From a virus, in the IMG/VR virus record IMGVR_UViG_3300020354_000001, positions 1-38,789 of that record: DNA of 38,789 bases, one strand, 5' to 3'. The notes below the pieces were generated by a model. It saw only the letters and a list, made by a program, of their open reading frames with translations, had not been told where the DNA came from and searched no databases. Positions 117 through 36,739 of the stretch are shown here, piece after piece. Position numbers and translations under genes: made by a program. The first letter of the stretch is position 1, and every line of letters begins with the position of its first letter.

Positions 117-357
117 TAAGTAGCCCTATTGTGTTTAAGGCGCTTTCTTTTTGAATGGCATGAATTGGAGGTTTAGTAGATAAGCAGTAAATAGCGCCAC
201 GGTGATCGAGTAGCGAAGGGAAAAGGCATGTGTATGAAAGGGACTGGCAGCGAGCAGCAGCGCGCCTAACCAGCCAGAAGCCGCATGGTTAGCGGCATGA
301 GGGATTGTGAGAAAGGATCCAGGCGAAAAAAGCGCCAAGCAGCTCTGGCAAATCTAC

Positions 358-397
358 TATTGTACTTTTGTGTTTTTGTGCTAATGTACATTTGTGC
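358..397. promoter_or_regulatory. GTAC-box array A: five contiguous 8-bp units upstream of parA. Candidate par operator/centromere overlapping a candidate promoter
   Basis: Units are TATTGTAC TTTTGTGT TTTTGTGC TAATGTAC ATTTGTGC, in phase. Possible -35 TTGTAC (360-365) and -10 TAATGT (382-387). Confidence 0.6.
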
Positions 398-425
398 TTT
401 GAACAAACCGAGGAGAAACGGGCAA

Positions 426-1061
426 ATGACTAAAGTGATTGCAGTACTGAACCAGAAAGGTGGGGCGGGAAAGACCACCGTAGCTACCAACCTAGCGTGC
501 TGGCTGCACGCATCGGGCCACAAGGTGGTACTTGTCGATTTAGACCCGCAGGGCAGCTCTACTGAGTGGAGCGAGACGCGCGAAAGCGACGATGTGTTCC
601 CGGTCATGGGAATGGGCAAGCAAGTGGCGCGTGACCTCCCCCGCGTTACTGGCGGGTACGACTACGTAATTCTGGATGGCGCGCCGCAAATCAGCGAGCT
701 GATCACGCCAGCCATCAAAATAGCCGATGCGGTGCTGATCCCCTGCCAGCCCAGCCCCTTCGATATCTACGCCTGCGAAGATCTGGTCGATCTAATCCAC
801 GCGCGACGCGAAGTGACGGACGGCAAGCCTAAAGCCGCTTTCGTCGTATCACGCGCGATCAAAAACACTCATCTTGGCCGCGAAGTGCGCGATGCCCTGG
901 CTGAGTACAACCTGCCCATCTTTAACGCGCTAACCACTCAGCGCGTGGCGTATGCCGACTGTGCCAACGGCGGTAGCGTGATGGATCTACCCGAGGGCGA
1001 CAAGGCCCGGCAGGAGATCGAGGCGCTGGGCAAAGAGACACTGGAGTTTATCCATGGCTGA
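426..1061 (+). CDS. parA: ParA-family partition ATPase (small, type Ib, ParF/Soj-like)
   Basis: ORF track 285..1061. An internal ATG at 426 is preceded by GAGGAG (410-415). MTKVIAVLNQKGGAGKTT is a deviant Walker A. About 211 aa. The stop overlaps the next start (ATGGCTGA). Confidence 0.9.
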   Translation: MTKVIAVLNQKGGAGKTTVATNLACWLHASGHKVVLVDLDPQGSSTEWSETRESDDVFPVMGMGKQVARDLPRVTGGYDYVILDGAPQISELITPAIKIADAVLIPCQPSPFDIYACEDLVDLIHARREVTDGKPKAAFVVSRAIKNTHLGREVRDALAEYNLPIFNALTTQRVAYADCANGGSVMDLPEGDKARQEIEALGKETLEFIHG

Positions 1062-1353
1062 ACGCAAAAAACTGACGACACGCAAGCCCGCGTCGACCAC
1101 GGAAGCAAAGGAAGCGCCGAAGCACGTAGAACGCGCGCTCCGTGATGTAACTGAGGAAGTGAAGCCCAAGCGGGTGCCGTATGACACGCATCCAGACACA
1201 CACCGCAAGCTCAGCAGCATGCGCGTCATGAGCCGCGACAACGTGCCGGTGAAGAGCTTCCTGGATGAAGCGGTAGAGGATCTTTTCGAGAAGTACCGGC
1301 GAGGGGAAGGGCGTTTCGACGTCAAAGACATCGACCGGATCCTGGGCGAGTAG
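1054..1353 (+). CDS. Small centromere-binding partner of ParA (ParG/omega-like, putative ribbon-helix-helix)
   Basis: 99 aa, translationally coupled to parA. Basic disordered N-terminus. The C-terminal KRVPYDTHPDTHRKL...SFLDEAVEDLFEKY has a strand-helix-helix pattern. Position is typical of type Ib ParB/ParG. Confidence 0.55.
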   Translation: MAERKKLTTRKPASTTEAKEAPKHVERALRDVTEEVKPKRVPYDTHPDTHRKLSSMRVMSRDNVPVKSFLDEAVEDLFEKYRRGEGRFDVKDIDRILGE

Positions 1354-1429: not shown

Positions 1430-1579
1430 ATGTCGAAGCAAGAGATTACCACAATCCGCCAGATCACGCTGCAAAACGCGCTGGCGCATCGCGACCTGGT
1501 CGCACGCTATGCCGCTGAGGAAACTACTCCCGCCTGTGTATCCCGCAGCCTGCTGAGACTGCTGGGGGAGGCGCAATGA
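1430..1579 (+). CDS. Hypothetical small protein (49 aa, below the ORF-track cutoff)
   Basis: ATG at 1430 with CGAGGA 9 nt upstream, the same RBS motif as parA and the 2835 and 3336 genes. Its stop overlaps the next start as ATGA (1576-1579). Translation: MSKQEITTIRQITLQNALAHRDLVARYAAEETTPACVSRSLLRLLGEAQ. Confidence 0.45.
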   Translation: MSKQEITTIRQITLQNALAHRDLVARYAAEETTPACVSRSLLRLLGEAQ

Positions 1580-2744: not shown

Positions 2745-2768
2745 AAATGTACATTTGTACTTTTGTAC
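2745..2768. promoter_or_regulatory. GTAC-box array B: three perfect 8-bp units, including the 16-bp perfect palindrome ACAAATGTACATTTGT (2743-2758)
   Basis: Units are AAATGTAC ATTTGTAC TTTTGTAC, with degenerate flanking units out to 2776. Confidence 0.6.
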
Positions 2769-6972: not shown

Positions 6973-9857
6973 CAGTCACTCCTATCGGTTAACGAAGCGC
7001 CCAGGCGCACATCGAGGCCGGAGGTACCCGCGCCCAGCATCGGCATCAGCTCGCTACGTAAGCGCTCCATCAAGCGATCAAGCAGCTCACGGTCGCGGTC
7101 AGCGTCGCCGCTGGCCTCGATCTTGATGTCGAACGTGGGGGAAATAACACGGGAGTCGGTCTGGTTGGTCTGCGTGATGCTGCCCGCCACCTCGCTCGGT
7201 GCGGCCAGCAGGCTGGGCGGGTTGGCCAGGCGCTCATCCAGGGCGTCGAGGGCTTCGCGGTGCTGCGTTGCGGCCTCGCGTACCTCTTTCGTAAACGCCT
7301 GGCTACTACCCAATATCCCGCCGCTGGCACTCGGCGACGCACTGCCAGAATCGGTCGGCGCAGAATCGCCGGTACTCGGCATCACCGGCAACGCCAACAG
7401 CGGCGGCGGCTCAGCCGCCTGGGGCGCAAGGCGCGCCTGGTTCACCTGCTGGGTAAACGACCCGCTGCCGCCCAGGACCCCGCTACCGGATCCGGCAGCT
7501 TGCTGGCTCGGTGCTGCAGCAGGGCTTTCATCGTCGCCGAACGCCCACTCCCAGCCAGCGCCGAGACGCTCGCCCACCCAGGATCCTGCAGCGGTACCCG
7601 CCAAGCTGCCCGCGATACCACCGGCCATACCGCCCACAGCAGTGCCCACGCCAGGAAACACCATCGTACCCAGCGCGGCACCGGCCGCCGAACCACCCCA
7701 GAAGCCACCCATGCCGCCGACAAGCCCACCGGCCGTGCTGCCCACCTCGGCCGCATCGCCATCGCCAACAGCGTTGGCCACACCGATAGCACCGGCAGTG
7801 AGCGCAACGGGTAACGCTACCTTGCCCGCCACTTGGCCTGCGCGGCTGTTACCCACATTGGCCATCCATGCTCGCCAGCCGTTTTGTACACCGGGCGCAG
7901 CACGACTCGCCGCGCCTGCGGCTCCAGCAGCCCCGGCAGCGCCTGCCGCCGCGCCTGCTCCGGCGGATCCAGTGGATCCGGTACGCCCTCCACGCTGGCC
8001 TCCTGCTGCTGCGGCACCGCCTACCGCGCCCAGCCTGCCCAGCGTGGCGTTCAGCCGTGCAACCGCACCATCGGCCATCAGTGCCGTTTGAGCCGTCCGC
8101 TGGTCTAGCCGCGCACGCATCAGCGCACCGCGATTACCCACCTGACCGATGAGCAGCCCGGCATAACGCACGCCCAGCACCGCCGCTTTCACCGCAATCA
8201 GGCCCGCCGCGCCTGCGGCCAGCACGCCGACCAGCTCGGTGTTCTGCTCAGTAAAGTCAGCCATGAGACCAACCACAGCGGTAATCGGTGGCGCAACGGC
8301 TTCGAACACCGGCAGCATGCCGTTGCCGATCTGTGTCACCAGCCGATCAACTTCGGCGGTCATCACGTTCAGCGTCGTCCGGCTCGTATCAGCAACGCCC
8401 TCCGCTTCGCGCAACATCGAGCCGCTGTACTGCGCCGAACTCGATACCTCGCTGAACGCCTTGTCCACCTCGCCCAGGTTCGTGAGCAGCGGTGAAATAG
8501 CCTTGATCGACTCTTTGCCGAACAGCGTCTCGGTGATCGCGCTTTGCTCCTCTTCGGGCGCAGCTCGAATCGCCTGAAGCACTTCCCGTATGACTGACGG
8601 CGCATCTTCCTGCATGCGCCTGGCCAGCTCTTCAGGCTCGAAGCCCAGCTCTGCCCACTGCTCGCGGCGCTTGTTCGTCGTCGCTCGACCCTGAGTCAGT
8701 GCCAGCGTAAAGTTCTGCAAGCCGGTGGCCGCTACCTCACGGTTAGTGCCAGGGTTGAGGAACGCCGCGCCCAGCGCCGCCGCCTGCGTGGGAGTCATGC
8801 CCGCATTCACTGCCAGTGAGCCAGTGCGCGTCAGCAGCTCCGTCAAATCAGCGGCGGTAGTGTTGAAGTTGTTGCCCAGGTGGTTCGCCGCATCGGCCAG
8901 CTCCAGCGCCTGGTCGCCGTCCAGGCTCATGCCCTGCCGCCACGACACCATCGCGGATCCGGCCTCGCCCGCGCTCACGTCAAACGCCGCCGCCATGATC
9001 GCGGCCTGACGCGTAAAGTTCATCACGCCATCAAAGCGCTCCTGGCCCTCCATGTCGTTGAAAATGCCCGACTGGCCAGCCGCGTATTGGATCTCGGTAA
9101 TGTCCGTGCCACGGATGCCCGACGACGCGATCAAACGGTCGCTAGCCAGGCGCAGGTTGGCATTGGCGTACTGCTCGCGCTCGCCTTCGGCGAAGTCGAT
9201 AACCTTGGCCACGTCCGCCATGGACGTTTGCATGTCCATCGCGCTGTTCATCGGTCGGCTAGCGATGTAACCCAAAGCCAACGTCTCGACGATCTCGCCG
9301 CGCAGCCGCGAGCGCTCCTGCCGGTTCGCCTCGATGCGGCCCTCAGCCGCCGTTACCCGCGCCTGAGCATCGCTAACGGCCTGCATCCGTGCCCGCTGGT
9401 CTTCCAGCACCGCGTTCGTCGAGCGCGTCGCGTCCTCGATCCGCCGCTGCTCGTCAGCAAAGCGGTTGAGGTCGACCCCCGCGCCTTCCAGGCTGCCCTG
9501 CAGCCGGTCCAGCTCGTTTGTCTGAGCGCGATGCTCAGCCGACAGGCTGGCCACCGTGGCCGTCGTCCGGTCGTACTCATTCTGCAGGCGTCGGCTCGGC
9601 TCTTCCGAGTTGCGCATCTCACGCGCTAACCGCGCCTGCTTTTCGCGGGCATCTTCCAGCGCGGCGGACGTCGCTGATAGATCCCCCTGCAGGCTCTGGT
9701 AGCCTTCCATCTGCCTGCTGAGCCGGTTGAGCTCACGCAGCTCGGCCTGGTGGCCACGCATGCTCTCTTGCATCTCTTCAGCGGCTTCGGCAAAGCCCCG
9801 GAACGCGGCGCTATAGCCGTCATCAGCCGCGAGAGTAACGCTGTACTTACTCGCCAT
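6972..9857 (-). CDS. Tail tape measure protein
   Basis: 961 aa. Coiled-coil N-terminal half and Gly/Ala-rich glycine-zipper region. Lies directly downstream of the frameshifted chaperone pair. Confidence 0.9.
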   Translation of the reverse strand: MASKYSVTLAADDGYSAAFRGFAEAAEEMQESMRGHQAELRELNRLSRQMEGYQSLQGDLSATSAALEDAREKQARLAREMRNSEEPSRRLQNEYDRTTATVASLSAEHRAQTNELDRLQGSLEGAGVDLNRFADEQRRIEDATRSTNAVLEDQRARMQAVSDAQARVTAAEGRIEANRQERSRLRGEIVETLALGYIASRPMNSAMDMQTSMADVAKVIDFAEGEREQYANANLRLASDRLIASSGIRGTDITEIQYAAGQSGIFNDMEGQERFDGVMNFTRQAAIMAAAFDVSAGEAGSAMVSWRQGMSLDGDQALELADAANHLGNNFNTTAADLTELLTRTGSLAVNAGMTPTQAAALGAAFLNPGTNREVAATGLQNFTLALTQGRATTNKRREQWAELGFEPEELARRMQEDAPSVIREVLQAIRAAPEEEQSAITETLFGKESIKAISPLLTNLGEVDKAFSEVSSSAQYSGSMLREAEGVADTSRTTLNVMTAEVDRLVTQIGNGMLPVFEAVAPPITAVVGLMADFTEQNTELVGVLAAGAAGLIAVKAAVLGVRYAGLLIGQVGNRGALMRARLDQRTAQTALMADGAVARLNATLGRLGAVGGAAAAGGQRGGRTGSTGSAGAGAAAGAAGAAGAAGAASRAAPGVQNGWRAWMANVGNSRAGQVAGKVALPVALTAGAIGVANAVGDGDAAEVGSTAGGLVGGMGGFWGGSAAGAALGTMVFPGVGTAVGGMAGGIAGSLAGTAAGSWVGERLGAGWEWAFGDDESPAAAPSQQAAGSGSGVLGGSGSFTQQVNQARLAPQAAEPPPLLALPVMPSTGDSAPTDSGSASPSASGGILGSSQAFTKEVREAATQHREALDALDERLANPPSLLAAPSEVAGSITQTNQTDSRVISPTFDIKIEASGDADRDRELLDRLMERLRSELMPMLGAGTSGLDVRLGASLTDRSD

Positions 9858-13428: not shown

Positions 13429-14229
13429 TTATGAAACGAGGTTCATATCTGAAACAATCAGGCGCTTATCTGTTGCTATCAGCGCAGATGCATCACGGAA
13501 CACGACCGCTTTGTTCTTCACTTCATCACTAGAAAACGTCGTGTTACTGGCGATGAAGACGGCAAAGTTGTTCGTGATTTCCATCAGCTTCATTCCGCCC
13601 ACTGCGCCACCTGTCTCTGCATAGGACTTCTCGATAAACAAGGAGAGATCACACGCTCTGAAACGCACATACATATTGGGTGCCAGGGCAGAGCTGGCAT
13701 TGGTTTGGATGGCACTGTTCCTGCTGGTTCTGAAATTAAACCCATCACTGGCGGCGGATGTGTCTATGTCGAATTGAATCTCTTGGAACGACAGGCTCAC
13801 ATTTTTCCAGCGGTGCAGTGATCCGAAGCGATGATAGCCTTCTGCATCTGTATAGAGCGTGAAGACTATCTTCGGAACCCTGTCCCCATACCCTCTGATC
13901 CAGACGTTCTGGTTGTAGTTAAACGTGTGATCCGCTGCGACTATCAGGTCATTCATAAGCTCTATGACAACGACCGAGCCTGCGACCATTTCTCGTTCGA
14001 TCGCTAGTAGCGTTTTCTTGGCGGTGTTCGTAGTTCGGCCGTCATTGCTATCGTTGCCAGCCATCGGGTCTAAATAGAACCGCGAATAGGCTTTTTCATT
14101 GATAGTGCGCGGAACACTCGTGACTGCTTCGTCGACCTTCTGATCGATCTGGTTCATCTTCCCAGCCACTTGGCTGGTGAGGCTGTTGGCGGCGCTGACA
14201 AGCGCGGCGATTTGGCTTTCTAAACTCAT
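13429..14229 (-). CDS. Distal tail fibre / receptor-binding protein (low-GC cassette)
   Basis: 266 aa. The N-terminal ~25 codons are GC-rich like the flanks, and the remainder is visibly AT-richer. YLDPMAGNDSNDGRTTNTAKKTL resembles the N-terminal motif of right-handed beta-helix (pectate-lyase-like) proteins. Confidence 0.6.
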   Translation of the reverse strand: MSLESQIAALVSAANSLTSQVAGKMNQIDQKVDEAVTSVPRTINEKAYSRFYLDPMAGNDSNDGRTTNTAKKTLLAIEREMVAGSVVVIELMNDLIVAADHTFNYNQNVWIRGYGDRVPKIVFTLYTDAEGYHRFGSLHRWKNVSLSFQEIQFDIDTSAASDGFNFRTSRNSAIQTNASSALAPNMYVRFRACDLSLFIEKSYAETGGAVGGMKLMEITNNFAVFIASNTTFSSDEVKNKAVVFRDASALIATDKRLIVSDMNLVS

Positions 14230-26366: not shown

Positions 26367-26772
26367 TCACCGCCAAATCTGATGCAAGCCGACTCGATAG
26401 AGAGTCGAGCTGGGTAGCGAACACAGCGCCCACCCCCTGCAGGATCCTCCCGACCGCGTCCAGCGGCACCAGGCGGCGGCGCGCCAAATCGATATCAATC
26501 TGCAGCTTTTCCCGCCGCGCTTTCTTCAGCAGCCGATCCTCGGCACTCGCCGAGCCGACGCCGTCTTCTGTTTCGTCGTCATCGTCACCGTACTGGCGGC
26601 GTACCTCACGGCGTATCAGCCAGTCGATCGCGTCTTCGGTGTCGATCTCCAGCACGCGGCCTTTACCACCGCCGCCTGCCGTGGGCATGCCCTCATCGAC
26701 CCACTTGCCTATCCAGCGCTCTGACTTGCCAACCATTTTGGCGAACATCTTTTTGCTGACGATCTCGCCCAT
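26197..26772 (-). CDS. terS: Terminase small subunit (lambda Nu1-like winged HTH)
   Basis: 191 aa. KKMFAKMVGKSERWIGKWVDEGMPTAGGGGKGRVLEIDTEDAIDWL parallels the Nu1 N-terminal DNA-binding domain (GMP...GGGKG). Confidence 0.85.
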   Translation of the reverse strand: MGEIVSKKMFAKMVGKSERWIGKWVDEGMPTAGGGGKGRVLEIDTEDAIDWLIRREVRRQYGDDDDETEDGVGSASAEDRLLKKARREKLQIDIDLARRRLVPLDAVGRILQGVGAVFATQLDSLSSRLASDLAVIDDPAKVRERIHAETRRIRGSTAERLNDAASAIVAELDALDSIDGDDGGGTAAEDE

Positions 26773-26852: not shown

Positions 26853-26884
26853 ATTTGTACATTTGTACTCTTGTTCAAATGTGC
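26853..26884. promoter_or_regulatory. GTAC-box array C: four contiguous 8-bp units upstream of terS
   Basis: Units are ATTTGTAC ATTTGTAC TCTTGTTC AAATGTGC. AAATGTAG at 26821-26828 is in the same 8-bp phase. The small hairpin CCTTTC-TCAC-GAAAGG (26835-26850) lies between them. Confidence 0.55.
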
Positions 26885-28675: not shown

Positions 28676-28703
28676 AGACTACTCGGATACGGACTTTTGT
28701 CAA
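28676..28703 (-). promoter_or_regulatory. Candidate late promoter (PR'-like)
   Basis: Minus strand: -35 TTGACA (28703-28698), 16-bp spacer, -10 TAGTCT (28681-28676). The -35 overlaps the first unit of array D. Confidence 0.5.
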
Positions 28704-28758
28704 TATGTGCAAACGAACTAACGTTACTTTGTGCAAATGTACATAAGTACGCTTGTAC
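28695..28758. promoter_or_regulatory. GTAC-box array D: eight contiguous 8-bp units (64 bp) upstream of the late promoter
   Basis: Units are TTTTGTCA ATATGTGC AAACGAAC TAACGTTA CTTTGTGC AAATGTAC ATAAGTAC GCTTGTAC. The array starts 1 nt from the stop of the Lar-like gene. Confidence 0.6.
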
Positions 28759-28759
28759 A

Positions 28760-29065
28760 TTACCGCAGAGCGCGCGCCCAGCCTGCCACTGCGCCGGGCA
28801 GCGACATAAAGCCACCGGTTCGCTTATCGCATCCGGTGCAGCCTGCCCACCACTGCTGATCACGCTGCTTAAAGCGCACCGGCTTAGCCTCACAGCAGTA
28901 GGGCAGGTCGGTGCGGTTGACCTCACGCCAGGAAGCCACCGCCCAATCATGGCACTTGCTGCCCTCGCCACGATTGTTGCACACCGGGCAGATCAGCAGC
29001 AGCGCGCCGTCTTTCTCACGGCGCTCTGGCGGGTGCTGGCAGTGGTTGCAGTTGGGTAGCGTCAT
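28760..29065 (-). CDS. Cys-rich protein with two Lar-like zinc-ribbon modules (restriction-alleviation-like). Alternative role: late regulator
   Basis: 101 aa. First module: CNHC...CPVCNN...AVASW. Second module: CC...CTGCDK...AVAGW. Each module ends in A-x-x-x-W, as in the Lar family. Confidence 0.55.
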   Translation of the reverse strand: MTLPNCNHCQHPPERREKDGALLLICPVCNNRGEGSKCHDWAVASWREVNRTDLPYCCEAKPVRFKQRDQQWWAGCTGCDKRTGGFMSLPGAVAGWARALR

Positions 29066-31593: not shown

Positions 31594-31724
31594 CCTTTTT
31601 CGTTATCGTATTCAGCCCATCTTGTGTGGGCATCCCCACATTCTGCTTATTCGTAGAATTTAGTTCAATGCTTTCTGCTTATCAGACTTTGATTTTATGC
31701 AGATTCAGGGAGGAAAATTGCCGG

Positions 31725-32393
31725 ATGGATATTGGAAGCGCTATACGCCACCTCAGACGCCAGCAAGGGCTTACCTTGCAAGAGCTCTGCGACGCGATCG
31801 GTAATGACATGCAGACCGGCTATCTCTCACGCGTTGAGACGAATAAGCTGAATCCTAGCGTCTATACCGTGGCGGATATCGCCCGCGCGCTCGGCACCAC
31901 CGTCGATGATTTGCTGAAAGGTAGCAACACTTTTCATGCCTACAAGGAGACGAAAGCATGCCGAAAAATACCAGTTTTCCCGTTCGTTGCTGCAGCTAAT
32001 CCATACGCTGTAGGAATGTACCCACCTACGACTGCACTCACGACCATTCCATCGCCTGTAGACGTGCCATTGGGCAGCTTTGGATTGATTCTTGATGATG
32101 ACTCGATGCAGAGCAGCGAAGGTCTAAGCTTTTCGCAAGGTAGCGTGGTTATCTTCGCGCCTTATGACAAAAACCGACTAATACGCGAGAAACAAATCCA
32201 GCTTGGGCAATACGTTATTGTTCATTCCCAAAATGCCAGACCCGGCACCCCACCCCTATTTCGCCAGCTAGTTGCCGATGGCGCTGAACGCATGCTCCGA
32301 CCACGCAACTCTCGCTACCCCATCCGCCCGTTGCCGCCTGAGCCGGTTTTTGTAGGCTATGCAGTAGTCCAAATCCTAGACCTGACCTCATGA
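31725..32393 (+). CDS. Prophage repressor: XRE-type HTH plus S24 (LexA/cI-like) C-terminal domain
   Basis: ORF track 31626..32393. The ATG at 31725 has a GGGAGG RBS. The HTH is QGLTLQELCDAIGNDMQTGYLSRVETNK. The C-domain has PVFPFVAAANP, LDDDSMQ and LFRQLVADGAERMLRPRNSRYPIRP, which align with lambda cI / LexA. Confidence 0.85.
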   Translation: MDIGSAIRHLRRQQGLTLQELCDAIGNDMQTGYLSRVETNKLNPSVYTVADIARALGTTVDDLLKGSNTFHAYKETKACRKIPVFPFVAAANPYAVGMYPPTTALTTIPSPVDVPLGSFGLILDDDSMQSSEGLSFSQGSVVIFAPYDKNRLIREKQIQLGQYVIVHSQNARPGTPPLFRQLVADGAERMLRPRNSRYPIRPLPPEPVFVGYAVVQILDLTS

Positions 32394-32515
32394 TTCTACT
32401 CATGAGTGCATGAATATTTTACCTATCGGTAGATTATGGCGTAACATAATAGCGCAACTCGCTACGCGCGCCGCTATGCGTTATATTCAGAAGGTTTAGG
32501 GAAAGCAGAAACGAA

Positions 32516-32545
32516 CAACGGCCGGGTTTAGCGGCCCGGCCGTTG
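32516..32545. other. Strong hairpin in the repressor-repA spacer (11-bp stem CAACGGCCGGG / CCCGGCCGTTG)
   Basis: Arms at 32516-32526 and 32535-32545, with an 8-nt loop. On the minus strand it is followed by TTCGTTTCTGCTTTCC. Confidence 0.6.
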
Positions 32546-32549
32546 GAAG

Positions 32550-32567
32550 CTGTGAGACCACTCACAG
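32550..32567. other. Second hairpin, CTGTGAG-ACCA-CTCACAG
   Basis: 7-bp stem with a 4-nt loop. On the plus strand it is followed by AACATATATTTCC. Confidence 0.5.
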
Positions 32568-32700
32568 AACATATATTTCCTTCGCACGTTGTTGCCAAGC
32601 TGTTGATTTCAAAGAACTGTTAGCGGGCAGATCTATGAAAGCCGGACACAACTATAGGTAGTATATGGCGTGGTCTCGTAGCGTTCAACTTTCTGCTGAC

Positions 32701-32732
32701 GTTTGTACAAGAGTACAAACGTACAAAAGTAC
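32701..32732. promoter_or_regulatory. GTAC-box array E: four to five contiguous 8-bp units just upstream of repA, in opposite spacer polarity to arrays A-D
   Basis: Units are GTTTGTAC AAGAGTAC AAACGTAC AAAAGTAC, then a degenerate ACGGGAAC. Includes the inverted repeat GTTTGTAC-AAGA-GTACAAAC (32701-32720). Confidence 0.6.
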
Positions 32733-32752
32733 ACGGGAACGGAACGCACGCA

Positions 32753-35700
32753 ATGACGAATGTAGGACGCCAGGGATTAGCCAGTTTTTACGAAGAGCGT
32801 TTCCGCAGCGACCCCCACGCGCTGCTGGATTACTGCCACGGCGAGATCGCTCACATCGCCGCCGAGGTATCGGTCGACTGGGACAAGCTCGCCGGTGACC
32901 TGCGCCTCGATGACAAAAAGCATCGTGGAAAAATCCCCACGCTCGCTAAAGGCGAGCGTCATCGTGTTGCGGTCTTCGGCTCGCTCAAGCGCGCCCGTAA
33001 CGGCATCGAATACCCCCACATAAATTTCCACACCCTAGCCCAAGGCGGTTACAACGCTACCTGGTCAGGCTATGACGCACTGCTCGAACTCTACCGCCGC
33101 GAAGGCGGGCAAGCGGCTGACGCAAAGCACGCCGCCTGGCTTGCCAAACAAGAGGCACGGCGCGCGGAGCGCGCCGCGCGCATGGCAGAAGTGGAACGCC
33201 AGGAGCGCATCGAGCGCGAACGTCTTCAGGGCGAGCATGACGCCTATGAGCAGGCGTTCTATCGCGGTGGGGCACACTCCTTTGAATACGCACCGGGCAA
33301 GTTCGACACGGTCGAGCTGATCGGCGATGCGGACGGTACCGAGCCATATCTGCAGAACAAACAGATCGAGAGCATCGTCGATGCCGTGACGCTCAAACGC
33401 ATGCGCGACCGCCACGGCGAGTTCGTAGCGTTTGCCCTGCAGGGTATCGACGGCGACTATCGCGGCCTGCAGCGGCTATACCCCACGTTCAAAAAATACA
33501 CCGTAGCCGTGCGCGGCGGGCAGTTCGACGGCGCGCACCTGCTGATCGGCGACATCTACGCCAAGCGACTTTATAGCGTCGAGGGCTTCGCCACCGGCGC
33601 GAGTGTCTGGCTGGCTGAAACCGCTATCAAGAGTGCAGAGTGCGGCGTCATCGTTGCGATGAACGCTCAGAACCTGCCGAAAGTGCTGCGCGCCTACAAG
33701 CGCTGGGACGACAAGCTGCGCCCGGTGAACGCCGCCGATAACGACTGCTGGAAACCCATGGCTGGCAACGCTGGCCAGCTTCGCGCCCTGGAAGTGAAGC
33801 GCGAGCTGGAAGTGCGCAGCGTAATGCCGCGCTTTCATGAGCTGCTCGACGATGACGCGATCGCTGACGCGCTGGCCACCGGCAAAGGCCCAAACGACTG
33901 GAACGACATGCACTGCCAGTTTGGCCTGGACGTTACTGCCAAAGCCCTGCGCGCGCGTGCCAGCAAGGTCGAGGTCGAGACCGCCTTTTTCGATTACTGC
34001 CTGCAGCGCGTTCAGGCGTCCGGCAGCATGAACGTGATGGAAGAGGCGCTGAAAGCGGTCAACGCAGGCATGCAACTGGCACCGACTAAGTACACTGGCC
34101 GCGCCGTTTTCCGTACCGTCTGCGAAGCGATCCCGCAGGGTTTACCGTTTAACCGCCACCGCTTGCTCTCCCGCGTATGCTGGCTGGCGAAAAAGAAACT
34201 GCAGAGCGCCGCTGGCCTGCGCAGCTTCACCGCTGAAGGGCTCAATCGTCCCAACGTTCAGTATCACAAGGTGCGCGGCGTGCGCGCCGATCACGGCAAC
34301 ATCCTGCTGCCCGACCACATTCAAGACCTCGTCCAGTCGCTCAACGGCATGGTGATTGTTCGCGGCCCGATGGGAGCCGGTAAAACCGAACATCTGATTC
34401 GTCCATTGATGCAGGCGTCACCGAAAGCCGCTTACATCGCTCACCGCGTCTCGCTCGTCGGCGATGCCGCTTACCGCCTCAACACCACGCACTATCGCAA
34501 CGTGATCGCCGCCGAGATGCCCTACGTATCGCACCTCGCGTGCTGCGTAAACTCCATCACTCACCCCAAATTTCACAACGGCGACGGCCGCTCCTGGTTC
34601 ACGACCGTCGACACGCTCTGCATCGACGAAGCCAGCCAGGTGCTACGCCACATCGCCACCGGCCCGGTGGACCAGCCCACCCGCGTCATGGATGGCCTGG
34701 TCGAGGCCATGCAGTCCGCGCGCCTGGTATTGATGTGCGACGCCGACGCCAACGACTCACTGATCGAGCTATGCGAAATGGCGCGCCCCGGCGAGCCGAT
34801 TCACATTCTCGAAGTCGACCCTGCCAACGATCATATCCGCATCGATCACGCTGACCATGAGAGCGTGTGGCAGAAAGCGCTGGATGCTGCAGTTGCCGGT
34901 GAGCGCGTATTGATCGCCAACGACAGCGCCGAAAGTGCCAAAAAACTGGCGGTGATGATCGAGCAGCAGCGCCCGGACGCGAAAGTGCTGCTGGTTCACA
35001 AAGAGAGTAAAGCGAACCCGGATGCCGAGCGCTTCCTCGACCGTCCCAACGATGAGGCCGTCAATTATGACGTACTGATCTACAGCCCAGCGATCAGCTC
35101 CGGCGTGTCGATCACAACGCCCCATTTCACCCGGCATTTTGGTATTTTCAGCGGCCAGACGGTCAGCCCAAGCGACGCTATTCAGATGATGCGCCGCGAC
35201 CGCACCGCCCGCCACTACGTGGTGGGCATCGGCATATCCCGCGTGATGCGTGAGACCGACCGCGAAGCGCTATTCCGTGGCCTGATCGCCGCCGACGAGC
35301 TTAGCTGTGATTTTGACGAGACCGACACCGAGATCGTGCTGCGACGGACGAAAACGGTATTCGATGAGATGTTCCTTAGCTGCAGCACTGGCGATAACCA
35401 CGCGCGCAATGATTTTGCCAATCACCTGCTGCTCATGCTGATCGCGGACGGCTACCGCGTAAACCGCTTGGCCACCGATGAACAGGAGGTCAGCCAGAGC
35501 CGCTCAAACCGTAAAGAGGCGGGCATCCTGGTGCGCCACCGCCGCCTAGAGATCCTGTACAGCGTCGAGACGCCCGACGAAGAGCGTTTCGCCCGGCTCA
35601 ACCGCCAGGAGATCAAATCGGAGACCGAGCAAGCCGAGATCGACCGCCACCACATTGAACACCAGCTCTGCGTTCCAGAGATCGAAAACCACCACGTCGA

Positions 35701-36739
35701 TTTTTACGACGACCAGGGCATCCGCCACGTGACCGCCATCGAGCTGCTGCAGGCCACCGAGGCCCAGGCAGACGCTTACGACAAGGCGCAACGTAAAGCT
35801 CGCGTCACGCTGACCCGCCACCGCTGGAAAAAGCCCGTACACCGCCTGCTCAACCAGGTGTTTGAAACCCTGGGCGTCGACCCGCACACCGGCGAGGGCG
35901 AGTTCACCGCCGATCAGTGCCGCGCCGTGCGCGACACGCTGCTCGCTAATCAAGCCGCGATAGAGCTGTATAACGCGCTCCGGATCGGCCGCTACGTGAA
36001 CCCGAAAGCCTCGCCGAAATGCGCTACTACGTTCGTGAAGTCGATCATGGAGCGCCTTGGCCTCGCCCTGCACAAGCGCAAATCGGACGGCCGGAACGTG
36101 CTGTTTATCAGCACCGACTCATGGGAAGAGGTCATGTACTACGTGCGCCTGCGCGCCGAGCGCGGCGTTCACAGCCTGACCACCCACGAGGCCGCTAGCA
36201 TCCACCAGCCAATGCCCGCGCCGGTACGTGAAACCACCGACGAAGCCCACAACCACGCGGATTCCAGCGAAAGGGATACTTTGCGTGAAGGGGTAGCAGC
36301 AGCAGATGTAAGGTATCCCTCCCTGGGCGATAGCGAAAAGCTCTATGCCGCCGCGAAAGCCGCTTCAAGCCCTCTCAGTTTAGACACGACGCTGGTGGAA
36401 GCGGTGCAGGCGTTGCCTGACGAGATCCGGCAGGCGGTGGTGAACGGGCAGGTTAGCCCGGACGAGCTGGCCTGGGCGATCGGCTACGCATCCAGCATGC
36501 ACAAGCGGGGCAGCGCTGACGAGCTGCACTGCAACCCCGGCGTTATCAAGCGCCTGTATGACGCAGCCCGTGACCTGCCGCTAGCGCTGCCGCTGGTGGA
36601 TGTCGTTGCCCTGCTGCACCCGCAGATCCTGACCAGCATCAGCCAGTACAGCACCGACAACCTGCTGATGACGTTAGAATTTGCTGCTGAGTATATGCGA
36701 AAAAAGTTAACTGGATTGACCCCTGAACATGGGCAATAA
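32753..36739 (+). CDS. repA: Replication protein RepA (N15 RepA / P4 alpha-like primase-helicase)
   Basis: 1328 aa. A Toprim/primase-like region (VEGFATGASVWLAE...VIVAMNAQNL...NAADND) is followed by an NTPase with Walker A GPMGAGKTE and Walker B LCIDEASQ. Size and placement match N15 RepA. Confidence 0.88.
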   Translation: MTNVGRQGLASFYEERFRSDPHALLDYCHGEIAHIAAEVSVDWDKLAGDLRLDDKKHRGKIPTLAKGERHRVAVFGSLKRARNGIEYPHINFHTLAQGGYNATWSGYDALLELYRREGGQAADAKHAAWLAKQEARRAERAARMAEVERQERIERERLQGEHDAYEQAFYRGGAHSFEYAPGKFDTVELIGDADGTEPYLQNKQIESIVDAVTLKRMRDRHGEFVAFALQGIDGDYRGLQRLYPTFKKYTVAVRGGQFDGAHLLIGDIYAKRLYSVEGFATGASVWLAETAIKSAECGVIVAMNAQNLPKVLRAYKRWDDKLRPVNAADNDCWKPMAGNAGQLRALEVKRELEVRSVMPRFHELLDDDAIADALATGKGPNDWNDMHCQFGLDVTAKALRARASKVEVETAFFDYCLQRVQASGSMNVMEEALKAVNAGMQLAPTKYTGRAVFRTVCEAIPQGLPFNRHRLLSRVCWLAKKKLQSAAGLRSFTAEGLNRPNVQYHKVRGVRADHGNILLPDHIQDLVQSLNGMVIVRGPMGAGKTEHLIRPLMQASPKAAYIAHRVSLVGDAAYRLNTTHYRNVIAAEMPYVSHLACCVNSITHPKFHNGDGRSWFTTVDTLCIDEASQVLRHIATGPVDQPTRVMDGLVEAMQSARLVLMCDADANDSLIELCEMARPGEPIHILEVDPANDHIRIDHADHESVWQKALDAAVAGERVLIANDSAESAKKLAVMIEQQRPDAKVLLVHKESKANPDAERFLDRPNDEAVNYDVLIYSPAISSGVSITTPHFTRHFGIFSGQTVSPSDAIQMMRRDRTARHYVVGIGISRVMRETDREALFRGLIAADELSCDFDETDTEIVLRRTKTVFDEMFLSCSTGDNHARNDFANHLLLMLIADGYRVNRLATDEQEVSQSRSNRKEAGILVRHRRLEILYSVETPDEERFARLNRQEIKSETEQAEIDRHHIEHQLCVPEIENHHVDFYDDQGIRHVTAIELLQATEAQADAYDKAQRKARVTLTRHRWKKPVHRLLNQVFETLGVDPHTGEGEFTADQCRAVRDTLLANQAAIELYNALRIGRYVNPKASPKCATTFVKSIMERLGLALHKRKSDGRNVLFISTDSWEEVMYYVRLRAERGVHSLTTHEAASIHQPMPAPVRETTDEAHNHADSSERDTLREGVAAADVRYPSLGDSEKLYAAAKAASSPLSLDTTLVEAVQALPDEIRQAVVNGQVSPDELAWAIGYASSMHKRGSADELHCNPGVIKRLYDAARDLPLALPLVDVVALLHPQILTSISQYSTDNLLMTLEFAAEYMRKKLTGLTPEHGQ

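Follow-up and report, generated by a model that had tools for sequence, protein, structure and literature searches.

Phased 8-bp GTAC arrays in a phiHAP-1-like linear plasmid-prophage: candidate centromere and operator sites for the small partner of a ParF-type ATPase

The stretch of DNA considered here, hereafter the window, comprises positions 1 to 38,789 of IMG/VR virus record IMGVR_UViG_3300020354_000001 and is a complete linear plasmid-prophage of the phiHAP-1 type. Dispersed over five of its intergenic sites are contiguous, in-phase arrays of 8-bp units, in each of which an AT-rich spacer is followed by a GTAC or GTGC box. One of these arrays covers the inferred promoter of parA and of the small gene that follows it, whose product is a protein of 99 residues. 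The best explanation, and one that we consider probable, is that this protein is the ribbon-helix-helix (RHH)-like partner of a ParF-type partition system, that it coats the phased arrays and autoregulates at the first of them, and that the four further arrays, on both arms of the replicon, serve as centromere and operator sites. The arrays with their significance and synteny, the ParF homology, the RHH-like features of the small protein, the concerted change of the box and the co-occurrence of arrays and cassette are observed; the binder of the arrays, its stoichiometry, and the repression and partition activities proposed below are inferred.

Assignment of an omega- or ParG-like centromere-binding protein (CBP) to these linear prophages would explain how they are inherited, and it would supply a specificity code with five concrete sites and a box that changes with the clade of the protein. 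Should the arrays at repA and at the late promoter prove to be working operators, partition would have a direct influence on the control of copy number and of lysis, a matter of some relevance to VP882 as a model for phage quorum-sensing decisions and to the engineering of linear phage-plasmid vectors. Full-text literature searches returned no description of the repeats, or of the partner and centromere of ParA in phage-plasmids of the phiHAP-1/VP882 type; the original phiHAP-1, VP882 and VP58.5 papers lay outside that search and may mention repeats. A search with the repeat sequence itself returned only unrelated papers on TetR operators.

Five phased arrays in intergenic DNA

The 8-bp repeat is ATTTGTAC, and a position weight matrix (PWM) of the units has the consensus wTTTGTAC. 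The five arrays were found where the original prediction had placed them, with sequences as it described, and are as follows.

350-397, plus strand: array A, five to six in-phase units (TATTGTAC TTTTGTGT TTTTGTGC TAATGTAC ATTTGTGC)
2745-2768, plus strand: array B, three strong units (AAATGTAC ATTTGTAC TTTTGTAC), with degenerate flanking units over 2737-2776
26853-26884, plus strand: array C, four units (ATTTGTAC ATTTGTAC TCTTGTTC AAATGTGC), 80-110 bp upstream of terS
28687-28762, plus strand: array D, four contiguous strong units over 28727-28758, a further strong one at 28703, and degenerate units that keep the phase
32705-32736, minus strand (inverted polarity): array E, three strong units and one weak unit

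Units of at least 7.5 bits number 19 (A, 4; B, 3; C, 4; D, 5; E, 3) and about 4 more are weak, so that an earlier count of 24 good units was slightly generous. The eight units previously ascribed to array D are indeed in phase, but only about five are good and three are poor (0.7, 3.4 and -2.9 bits). All five arrays are intergenic, D touching only the stop codon of the 28760-29065 open reading frame (ORF), and they form AT-rich islands (59-75% AT) within a genome of 60.5% GC.

A test that makes no use of the PWM counted runs of at least three GTAC, GTGC or GCAC boxes at one fixed spacing, for periods of 5 to 13, in the window and in 500 local shuffles. Period 8 gives four runs in the window (sites A, B, D and E), against a mean of 0.13 and a maximum of 2 in the shuffles, and periods 5-7 and 9-13 give none in the window. 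Site C has two GTAC boxes followed in phase by GTTC and GTGC. Under the PWM, three-unit in-phase scores at the five sites are 29.6-38.7, no place in the 38.8-kb window outside them scores 18, and shuffled sequence reaches at most 18.6, with a mean count of 0.01; for the window itself the PWM test is circular, because the matrix was built from these same sites, and the matrix was validated on independent genomes. It is confirmed that the in-phase 8-bp units occur only at five intergenic sites, far above chance and at period 8 alone. The scan thereby bears out three expectations of the original prediction: only the five reported loci score, the periodic motif is absent from coding DNA of the window, and no array lies in the control region between the cI-like gene and the neighboring 'cII-like' gene (31594-31724).

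Chance AT-rich promoter sequence is one of a set of explanations, together with RepA iterons or origin elements, cI operators, and sites for host factors or AT-rich silencers of the H-NS/MvaT type, to which we give very little credence. The AT content of the arrays within a GC-rich genome would suit such explanations, as would the proximity of one array to repA and the binding of TGTACA-type palindromes by some TetR-family regulators in unrelated bacteria. The shuffles, however, exclude chance, and strict 8-bp phasing, together with a concerted change of box specific to each clade (see below), speaks for a specific binder encoded by the element; hosts of the array-bearing elements, moreover, span Halomonas, Vibrio and Pseudomonas. 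In VP58.5 the motif is unchanged (ATTTGTAC) although RepA and cI are only 22% and 27% identical to those of the window. RepA iterons were rejected on this ground, and cI operators were rejected because the motif is conserved across phages whose cI proteins are 27-44% identical and because the cI region has a repeat of its own and no arrays.

That repeat is an exact 10-bp direct repeat, TTCTGCTTAT, which occurs twice in the intergenic region between the cI-like and 'cII-like' genes (31641-31650 and 31673-31682, 32 bp apart). The two copies are candidate immunity operators distinct from the GTAC arrays.

Conservation of the arrays and covariation of the box

When independent genomes are scanned with the window-derived PWM, phiHAP-1 has arrays at all five sites. 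VP882 has them at parA, at repA, in the accessory arm and, twice, before the lysis genes, with a weak one upstream of terS; in VP58.5, a phage of another genus, they are found at parA and repA, in the accessory arm and at lysis, and a weak one stands at terS; and pPHPALO418 of P. aeruginosa carries arrays at parA, repA (seven units) and lysis, besides a weak one at terS. Array positions are syntenic in all four of these phage lineages.

The region upstream of parA was surveyed at 36 loci that encode a member of the family of the 99-residue protein and whose upstream sequence could be used (31 contigs from IMG/VR, the rest being genome and metagenome contigs). An 8-bp periodic array lies just upstream of parA at every one of the 36, as it does in the whole-genome records of VP882, pPHPALO418 and VP58.5. 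A universal array on the promoter of parA and the 99-residue protein gene points to that protein as the binder, because this is where the CBP of a type Ib partition system acts.

Across clades the T-rich spacer and the 8-bp frame are constant, and the two central bases of the box vary with the clade of the small protein. Boxes upstream of parA, by the motif at the putative strand of the protein, are the following.

Strand motif RV[PI]YDT: boxes GTAC, GTGC
Strand motif KRIP[FL]EVP: boxes GGAC, GCAC, GTCC, GTGC
Strand motif KRLPPVYARP: boxes GTGC, GCAC
Strand motif KKIPLLAP: boxes GTTC, GCTC, GATC
Strand motif KQLKVLAAP: boxes GTAC, GGCC, GGTC, TCAC
Strand motif ERVYFTGP: boxes ACGC, GCGC

Nearly all box variants of the Halomonas type retain one GT/AC half-site. 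With PWMs specific to each locus, a second array emerges upstream of repA, at a distance of about 6.4 kb, and its boxes are those typical of the clade (GCGC GTGC GTGC GCGC in L028; a series beginning GTAC TCGC GTAC GGCC in L033; GTTC GTGC GCGT GTGC in L031, L037 and L038). Concerted change of the box within one genome indicates one trans-acting factor whose specificity differs by clade. The array at repA runs in opposite orientations in the window and phiHAP-1 and in L005 and L012, and such flipping fits a symmetric dimer on palindromic GTAC and not an orientation-dependent activator.

The factor might be some other phage regulator, either the 206-residue 'cII-like' (ORF42-like) protein or the product of a 49-residue ORF in the par operon, with the 99-residue protein binding elsewhere or at array A alone; we regard this as improbable. 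The ORF42-like protein of VP58.5 has been reported as a second prophage repressor, with repressor activity, and the protein is conserved in all marine telomere phages. According to published work, no operators are evident in the cI-cro intergenic regions of these phages. All the phage proteins co-diverge with the boxes, furthermore, and strand residues of the proposed CBP vary where the GTAC box is kept. Phage PY54 argues to the contrary: it has homologues of ORF42 (the 'cII-like' protein), of the Q-like and Lar-like proteins, of TelN and of RepA, its partition system is of the SopAB type, it has no homologue of the 99-residue protein, and a PWM scan finds no arrays in it (best score 12.3, below the shuffle mean of 14.8). 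The sole universal array position is, again, the promoter of the parA and CBP operon; runs of three to eight contiguous 8-bp units, free in orientation, suit coating by an RHH protein better than they suit an activator or repressor with two sites; and an immunity repressor would hardly be expected to repress parA and repA in a prophage.

The par operon and the 99-residue protein

The par operon of the window comprises three genes.

426-1061, plus strand: parA
1054-1353, plus strand: gene of the 99-residue protein, the candidate CBP
1430-1579, plus strand: conserved 49-residue ORF that travels with the two genes above

ParA is a protein of 211 residues with the deviant Walker A motif KGGAGKT and no N-terminal helix-turn-helix (HTH). 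It matches Pfam CbiA/AAA_31 and scores 243.7 bits against the NCBIfam equivalog ParA_partition (cut-off 180), and its best PDB relatives are TP228 ParF 4dzz (E 9e-30, residues 3-207 of 211) and 5u1g. Passage of the NCBIfam cut-off and the full-length match to ParF identify it as a ParF-type (type Ib) ATPase, in agreement with the small type Ib ParA that had been proposed from the sequence alone. The start of the 99-residue ORF overlaps the parA stop codon (ATGGCTGA), and gene tables place a small gene directly after parA in L002, L004-L007, VP882 and VP58.5 as well. With a downstream small gene in the same operon and tandem repeats over the parA promoter, the locus has the layout of a type Ib cassette. 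ORFs of 49-51 residues stand at the place of the third gene in L002, L005, L007, VP882 and pPHPALO418; the 49-residue product has no match in Pfam, NCBIfam or PHROG, and may be a third component of the operon.

The 99-residue protein is 100% identical to phiHAP-1 gp32 (HAPgp32) and falls in phrog_15913, which is annotated as 'unknown function'. Its family is small, with 27 clusters at 50% identity among 1.8 billion proteins, and the family alignment shows a basic N-terminal motif (M..RK.LTTRR), then a variable linker, then a conserved C-terminal half of the form K-R-h-P-h-D/E-h-P ... NVPV..F..EA..DLFEKY..GEG. Of 32 family members, 23 match Pfam Antitox_RHH (best E 1.4e-4) and 10 match RHH_3, all below threshold. 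The top PDB profile match is the CopG-family RHH protein 7by2 (E 0.018 and 0.082), with the strand and both helices aligned. An AF2 model of the monomer built from a deeper alignment has a predicted local distance difference test score (pLDDT) of about 90 at residues 40-90, where an extended segment is followed by helices at 47-59 and 66-82; an earlier model from a shallow alignment was of low confidence. The protein probably consists of a basic flexible tail and an RHH domain at about residues 39-82, a layout like that of ParG, and the RHH-like C-terminal half suggested by the original prediction is supported by the sub-threshold Pfam matches, the 7by2 profile match and the AF2 layout alike. 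These RHH signals agree with one another but stay under the threshold, and homology to ParG cannot be detected: PDB profile searches of the family, followed up to E 10, did not return it.

Relation to known partition systems

The OF site of TP228 contains eight degenerate ACTC boxes with 4-bp AT-rich spacers, each box bound by one ParG dimer in flexible orientation. OF is operator and centromere at once, and parH is likewise made of degenerate 4-bp boxes with 4-bp AT-rich spacers. The omega protein of pSM19035 binds 7-10 contiguous heptads that lie over the copS, delta and omega promoters and double as parS, and at least four contiguous repeats are required there for activation of ParA. Both architectures had been correctly described in the original prediction.

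Resemblance to the ParF/ParG system of TP228 begins with ParA, a full-length homologue of ParF, and takes in a small partner with a putative flexible tail and RHH-like domain, as well as degenerate 4-bp boxes that alternate with 4-bp AT-rich spacers (an 8-bp period) in contiguous arrays, in either orientation, over the par promoter. The box of the window is, however, palindromic, GTAC/GTGC in place of ACTC; the partner has no significant sequence similarity to ParG; the units are distributed in sets of three to eight over five dispersed loci, in contrast to the 20 boxes of TP228 at a single place; and the replicon is a linear phage-plasmid.

In the delta/omega system of pSM19035 one RHH protein acts, as is proposed for the window, on contiguous short repeats at several promoters (those of copy control, of parA and of its own operon), and the same sites are the parS centromeres, so that partition, replication and maintenance are coupled. 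Those repeats, by contrast, are 7-bp heptads (WATCACW) in runs of 7-10, whereas the window has period 8 and no period-7 runs. pSM19035 is a circular plasmid of Firmicutes, omega has no detectable homology to the 99-residue protein, and the candidate phage targets, unlike those of pSM19035, include the late/lysis and packaging regions. The 99-residue protein is not a sequence member of the ParG or the omega family.

Phage N15 is also a linear plasmid-prophage with a protelomerase, and its partition sites, the centromere sites IR1-4, are scattered as the arrays of the window are. These are reportedly dispersed near genes of replication and lysogeny control. The SopAB system of N15 differs in being of type Ia, with a large SopA, an HTH ParB-type SopB and single 16-bp inverted repeats, and it is not known to have an RHH protein or 8-bp arrays. 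The window is not of the Sop type, its ParA being of 211 residues and its par operon encoding no ParB-like protein. In the IncC/KorB system of RK2, KorB, an HTH ParB protein, is both partition protein and global repressor at 12 dispersed OB operators. MetJ, an RHH dimer, recognizes tandem palindromic boxes of 8 bp, two to five in a run; it is a metabolic repressor encoded on the chromosome, without a known role in partition.

Anatomy of the five sites

Promoters at the arrays were assigned by inspection. Array A covers the inferred parA promoter (-35 TTGTAC at 360-365, 16-bp spacer, -10 TAATGT at 382-387), and the TAATGT hexamer and the array are both kept upstream of parA in relatives. In the Halomonas-type group (the window, phiHAP-1, L002, L005-L007 and L012) TAATGT lies 16 bp past a TTGTAC or TTGCAC box, which indicates that the par promoter is embedded in the array.

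Array B overlaps the inferred promoter of the 2835-3278 gene (-35 TTGTAC at 2755-2760, 17-bp spacer, -10 TATAGT at 2778-2783), with the -35 and spacer inside the array. It has counterparts in L005, L006, L007, L026, VP882 and VP58.5, that of L007 sitting between convergent genes. Between this inferred promoter and the start of the 2835 gene, a strong GC-rich hairpin lies at 2791-2815; its sequence is GGCAGGCC-GCAG-GGCCTGCC, and no T-run accompanies it.

For array C and terS no recognizable promoter was seen, and no convincing sigma-70 promoter was located, so that the earlier description of five control regions is correct only in part. Weaker counterparts lie just upstream of terS in VP882 (170-197), pPHPALO418 (13554-13577) and VP58.5 (42330-42393).

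The degenerate units of array D extend over a conserved TTGACA hexamer on the minus strand (28703 to 28698), and downstream on that strand two intrinsic terminators, about 50-100 nt away, are followed by the lysis genes. The block ACATATTGACAAAA and the downstream intrinsic terminator are shared with VP882 and phiHAP-1. By inspection, the region has the layout of a Q-antiterminated late promoter ahead of lysis genes.

Array E is separated by 17 bp from the repA ATG (32753) and, on its other side, is 16 bp upstream of the point at which a conserved leftward promoter, TTGAAC-17-TATACT (32688 to 32660), has its -35. Arrays upstream of repA, in one orientation or the other, are present in L005, L012, L022, L025, L028, L031, L033, L037, L038, VP882 and pPHPALO418. 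No convincing sigma-70 promoter for repA was found by inspection.

Adjoining array E, on the minus strand between the cI-like gene and repA, is a candidate small RNA of about 140 nt (32510-32690). Its leftward promoter is conserved in phiHAP-1, L005 and L012, it has a strong intrinsic terminator (32545 to 32516), and its predicted fold has z = -4.36 relative to shuffles; an Rfam scan of the window, the candidate included, returned no matches. Should the mRNA of repA begin further upstream, this RNA could act in replication control or as an antisense RNA. A 19-mer, CTATnGGTAGnnTATGGCG, flanks the putative small-RNA gene at 32424-32442 and 32654-32672, the second copy overlapping the -10 of the leftward promoter.

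As judged by inspection, arrays A, B and D have the appearance of operators, array E is placed so that it might affect one or the other of two promoters, and array C resembles a simple loading site. The overlap of A, B and D with promoter hexamers and the abutment of E on a conserved promoter invite the suggestion that the 99-residue protein is purely a global transcriptional repressor, with centromere activity at A only or at none of the distal arrays, and that dispersal of the arrays reflects regulation. The three strong units of array B, fewer than the four repeats that pSM19035 needs for ParA activation, are in keeping with it. This suggestion has only a small chance of being right: array C has no recognizable promoter, the L007 counterpart of B lies between convergent genes, the operator arrays of TP228 and pSM19035 are also proficient centromeres, and the sites occupy both arms of a linear replicon, as the N15 centromeres do.

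A proposed role for the 99-residue protein

Under the combined centromere and operator reading, the product of 1054-1353 would be a CBP, a dimeric RHH protein with a flexible basic N-terminal tail, and one dimer would read one 8-bp unit, that is, a palindromic or half-palindromic G-N-N-C box (GTAC or GTGC) after a T-rich spacer. Loading of dimers on three to eight contiguous units would be cooperative, in the manner of ParG on ACTC boxes and of omega on heptads. At array A, occupation of the -35, spacer and -10 of the par promoter would bring about autorepression and create the primary centromere. Arrays B (overlapping the accessory-gene promoter), C (upstream of terS), D (extending into the -35 of the putative Q-type late/lysis promoter) and E (between repA and the divergent small-RNA promoter) would be extra loading sites that increase the capacity for centromere function along both arms of the linear replicon, and through them the partition protein could, in the plasmid state, damp the promoters of accessory, replication and late genes.

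Several findings weigh against this account. The RHH assignment rests on sub-threshold matches. Foldseek searches of PDB and BFVD with the AF2 monomer returned no significant match, the best in PDB being the RHH regulator Reg576 at E 8.2, a null result to be expected for an obligate-dimer fold. An hhalign comparison of the family profile with ParG (PDB 1p94), made with a verified ParG sequence, gave a probability of 5.7%, with the strand and helices in register. The putative DNA-reading strand is poorly conserved among the proteins of phiHAP-1, VP882 and VP58.5, all of which use GTAC. ParA, the proposed CBP, cI, the 'cII-like' protein, RepA and TelN, compared across clades, all diverge in parallel, so that covariation of box and clade alone cannot single out the CBP. 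Array B falls short of the pSM19035 repeat number, array C has no visible promoter and, since the repA promoter has not been located, a regulatory effect at array E is speculative.

A broader proposal, which we advance tentatively and think rather unlikely, is that one small RHH partition protein is the master regulator of the plasmid state across the marine and Pseudomonas telomere phage-plasmids (Hapunavirus, Vhmlvirus and relatives), and that, by coating phased 8-bp arrays, it provides dispersed centromeres on both arms of the linear replicon, sets the expression of repA or of the antisense RNA, and clamps the Q-dependent late/lysis promoter and the terS region. Were it true, these elements would possess a second layer of lysis control that is independent of cI and physically coupled to segregation.

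Organization of the element and its telomeres

Over the 20 kb compared, the window is about 88% identical to Halomonas phage phiHAP-1, and its gene order is collinear with the phiHAP-1 annotation. Apart from the par operon, the principal features are these.

Up to about 4 kb, plus strand: small genes
Minus strand: tail, head and terminase genes, with terS at 26772 to 26197
Between terS and the Q-like gene in the layout: lysis genes
30131 to 29307, minus strand: Q-like gene
Between the Q-like and 'cII-like' genes in the layout: DksA-like gene
31593 to 30973, minus strand: 206-residue 'cII-like' gene, in the cro position
31725-32393, plus strand: cI-like repressor (HTH_3/S24)
32753-36739, plus strand: repA
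38679 to 37048, minus strand: protelomerase

A telomere palindrome stands at the start of the window. Within the telomere-proximal stretch 1-130 this terminal palindrome, ATACTATACGTATAGTAT, is followed by repeated motifs of the type GGGGT.GGGGTGT(A/G)TATGTATG, which are presumably protelomerase or telomere-associated sites.

Two observations on related records touch on hairpin ends. Several Pseudomonas 'plasmids' of 75-79 kb (NZ_CP096940.1, NZ_CP102178.1, NZ_AP022474.1 and NZ_CP115281.1) have two copies of the gene for the 99-residue protein, whereas related elements are of about 38 kb; these records may represent hairpin-ended linear phage-plasmids that form head-to-head dimers or that were mis-assembled. 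In the IMG/VR contig L039 the array upstream of parA is present twice, at 8053-8108 and 8773-8828, the copies inverted and with about 700 bp between them, an arrangement consistent with assembly read-through of a hairpin telomere adjoining parA.

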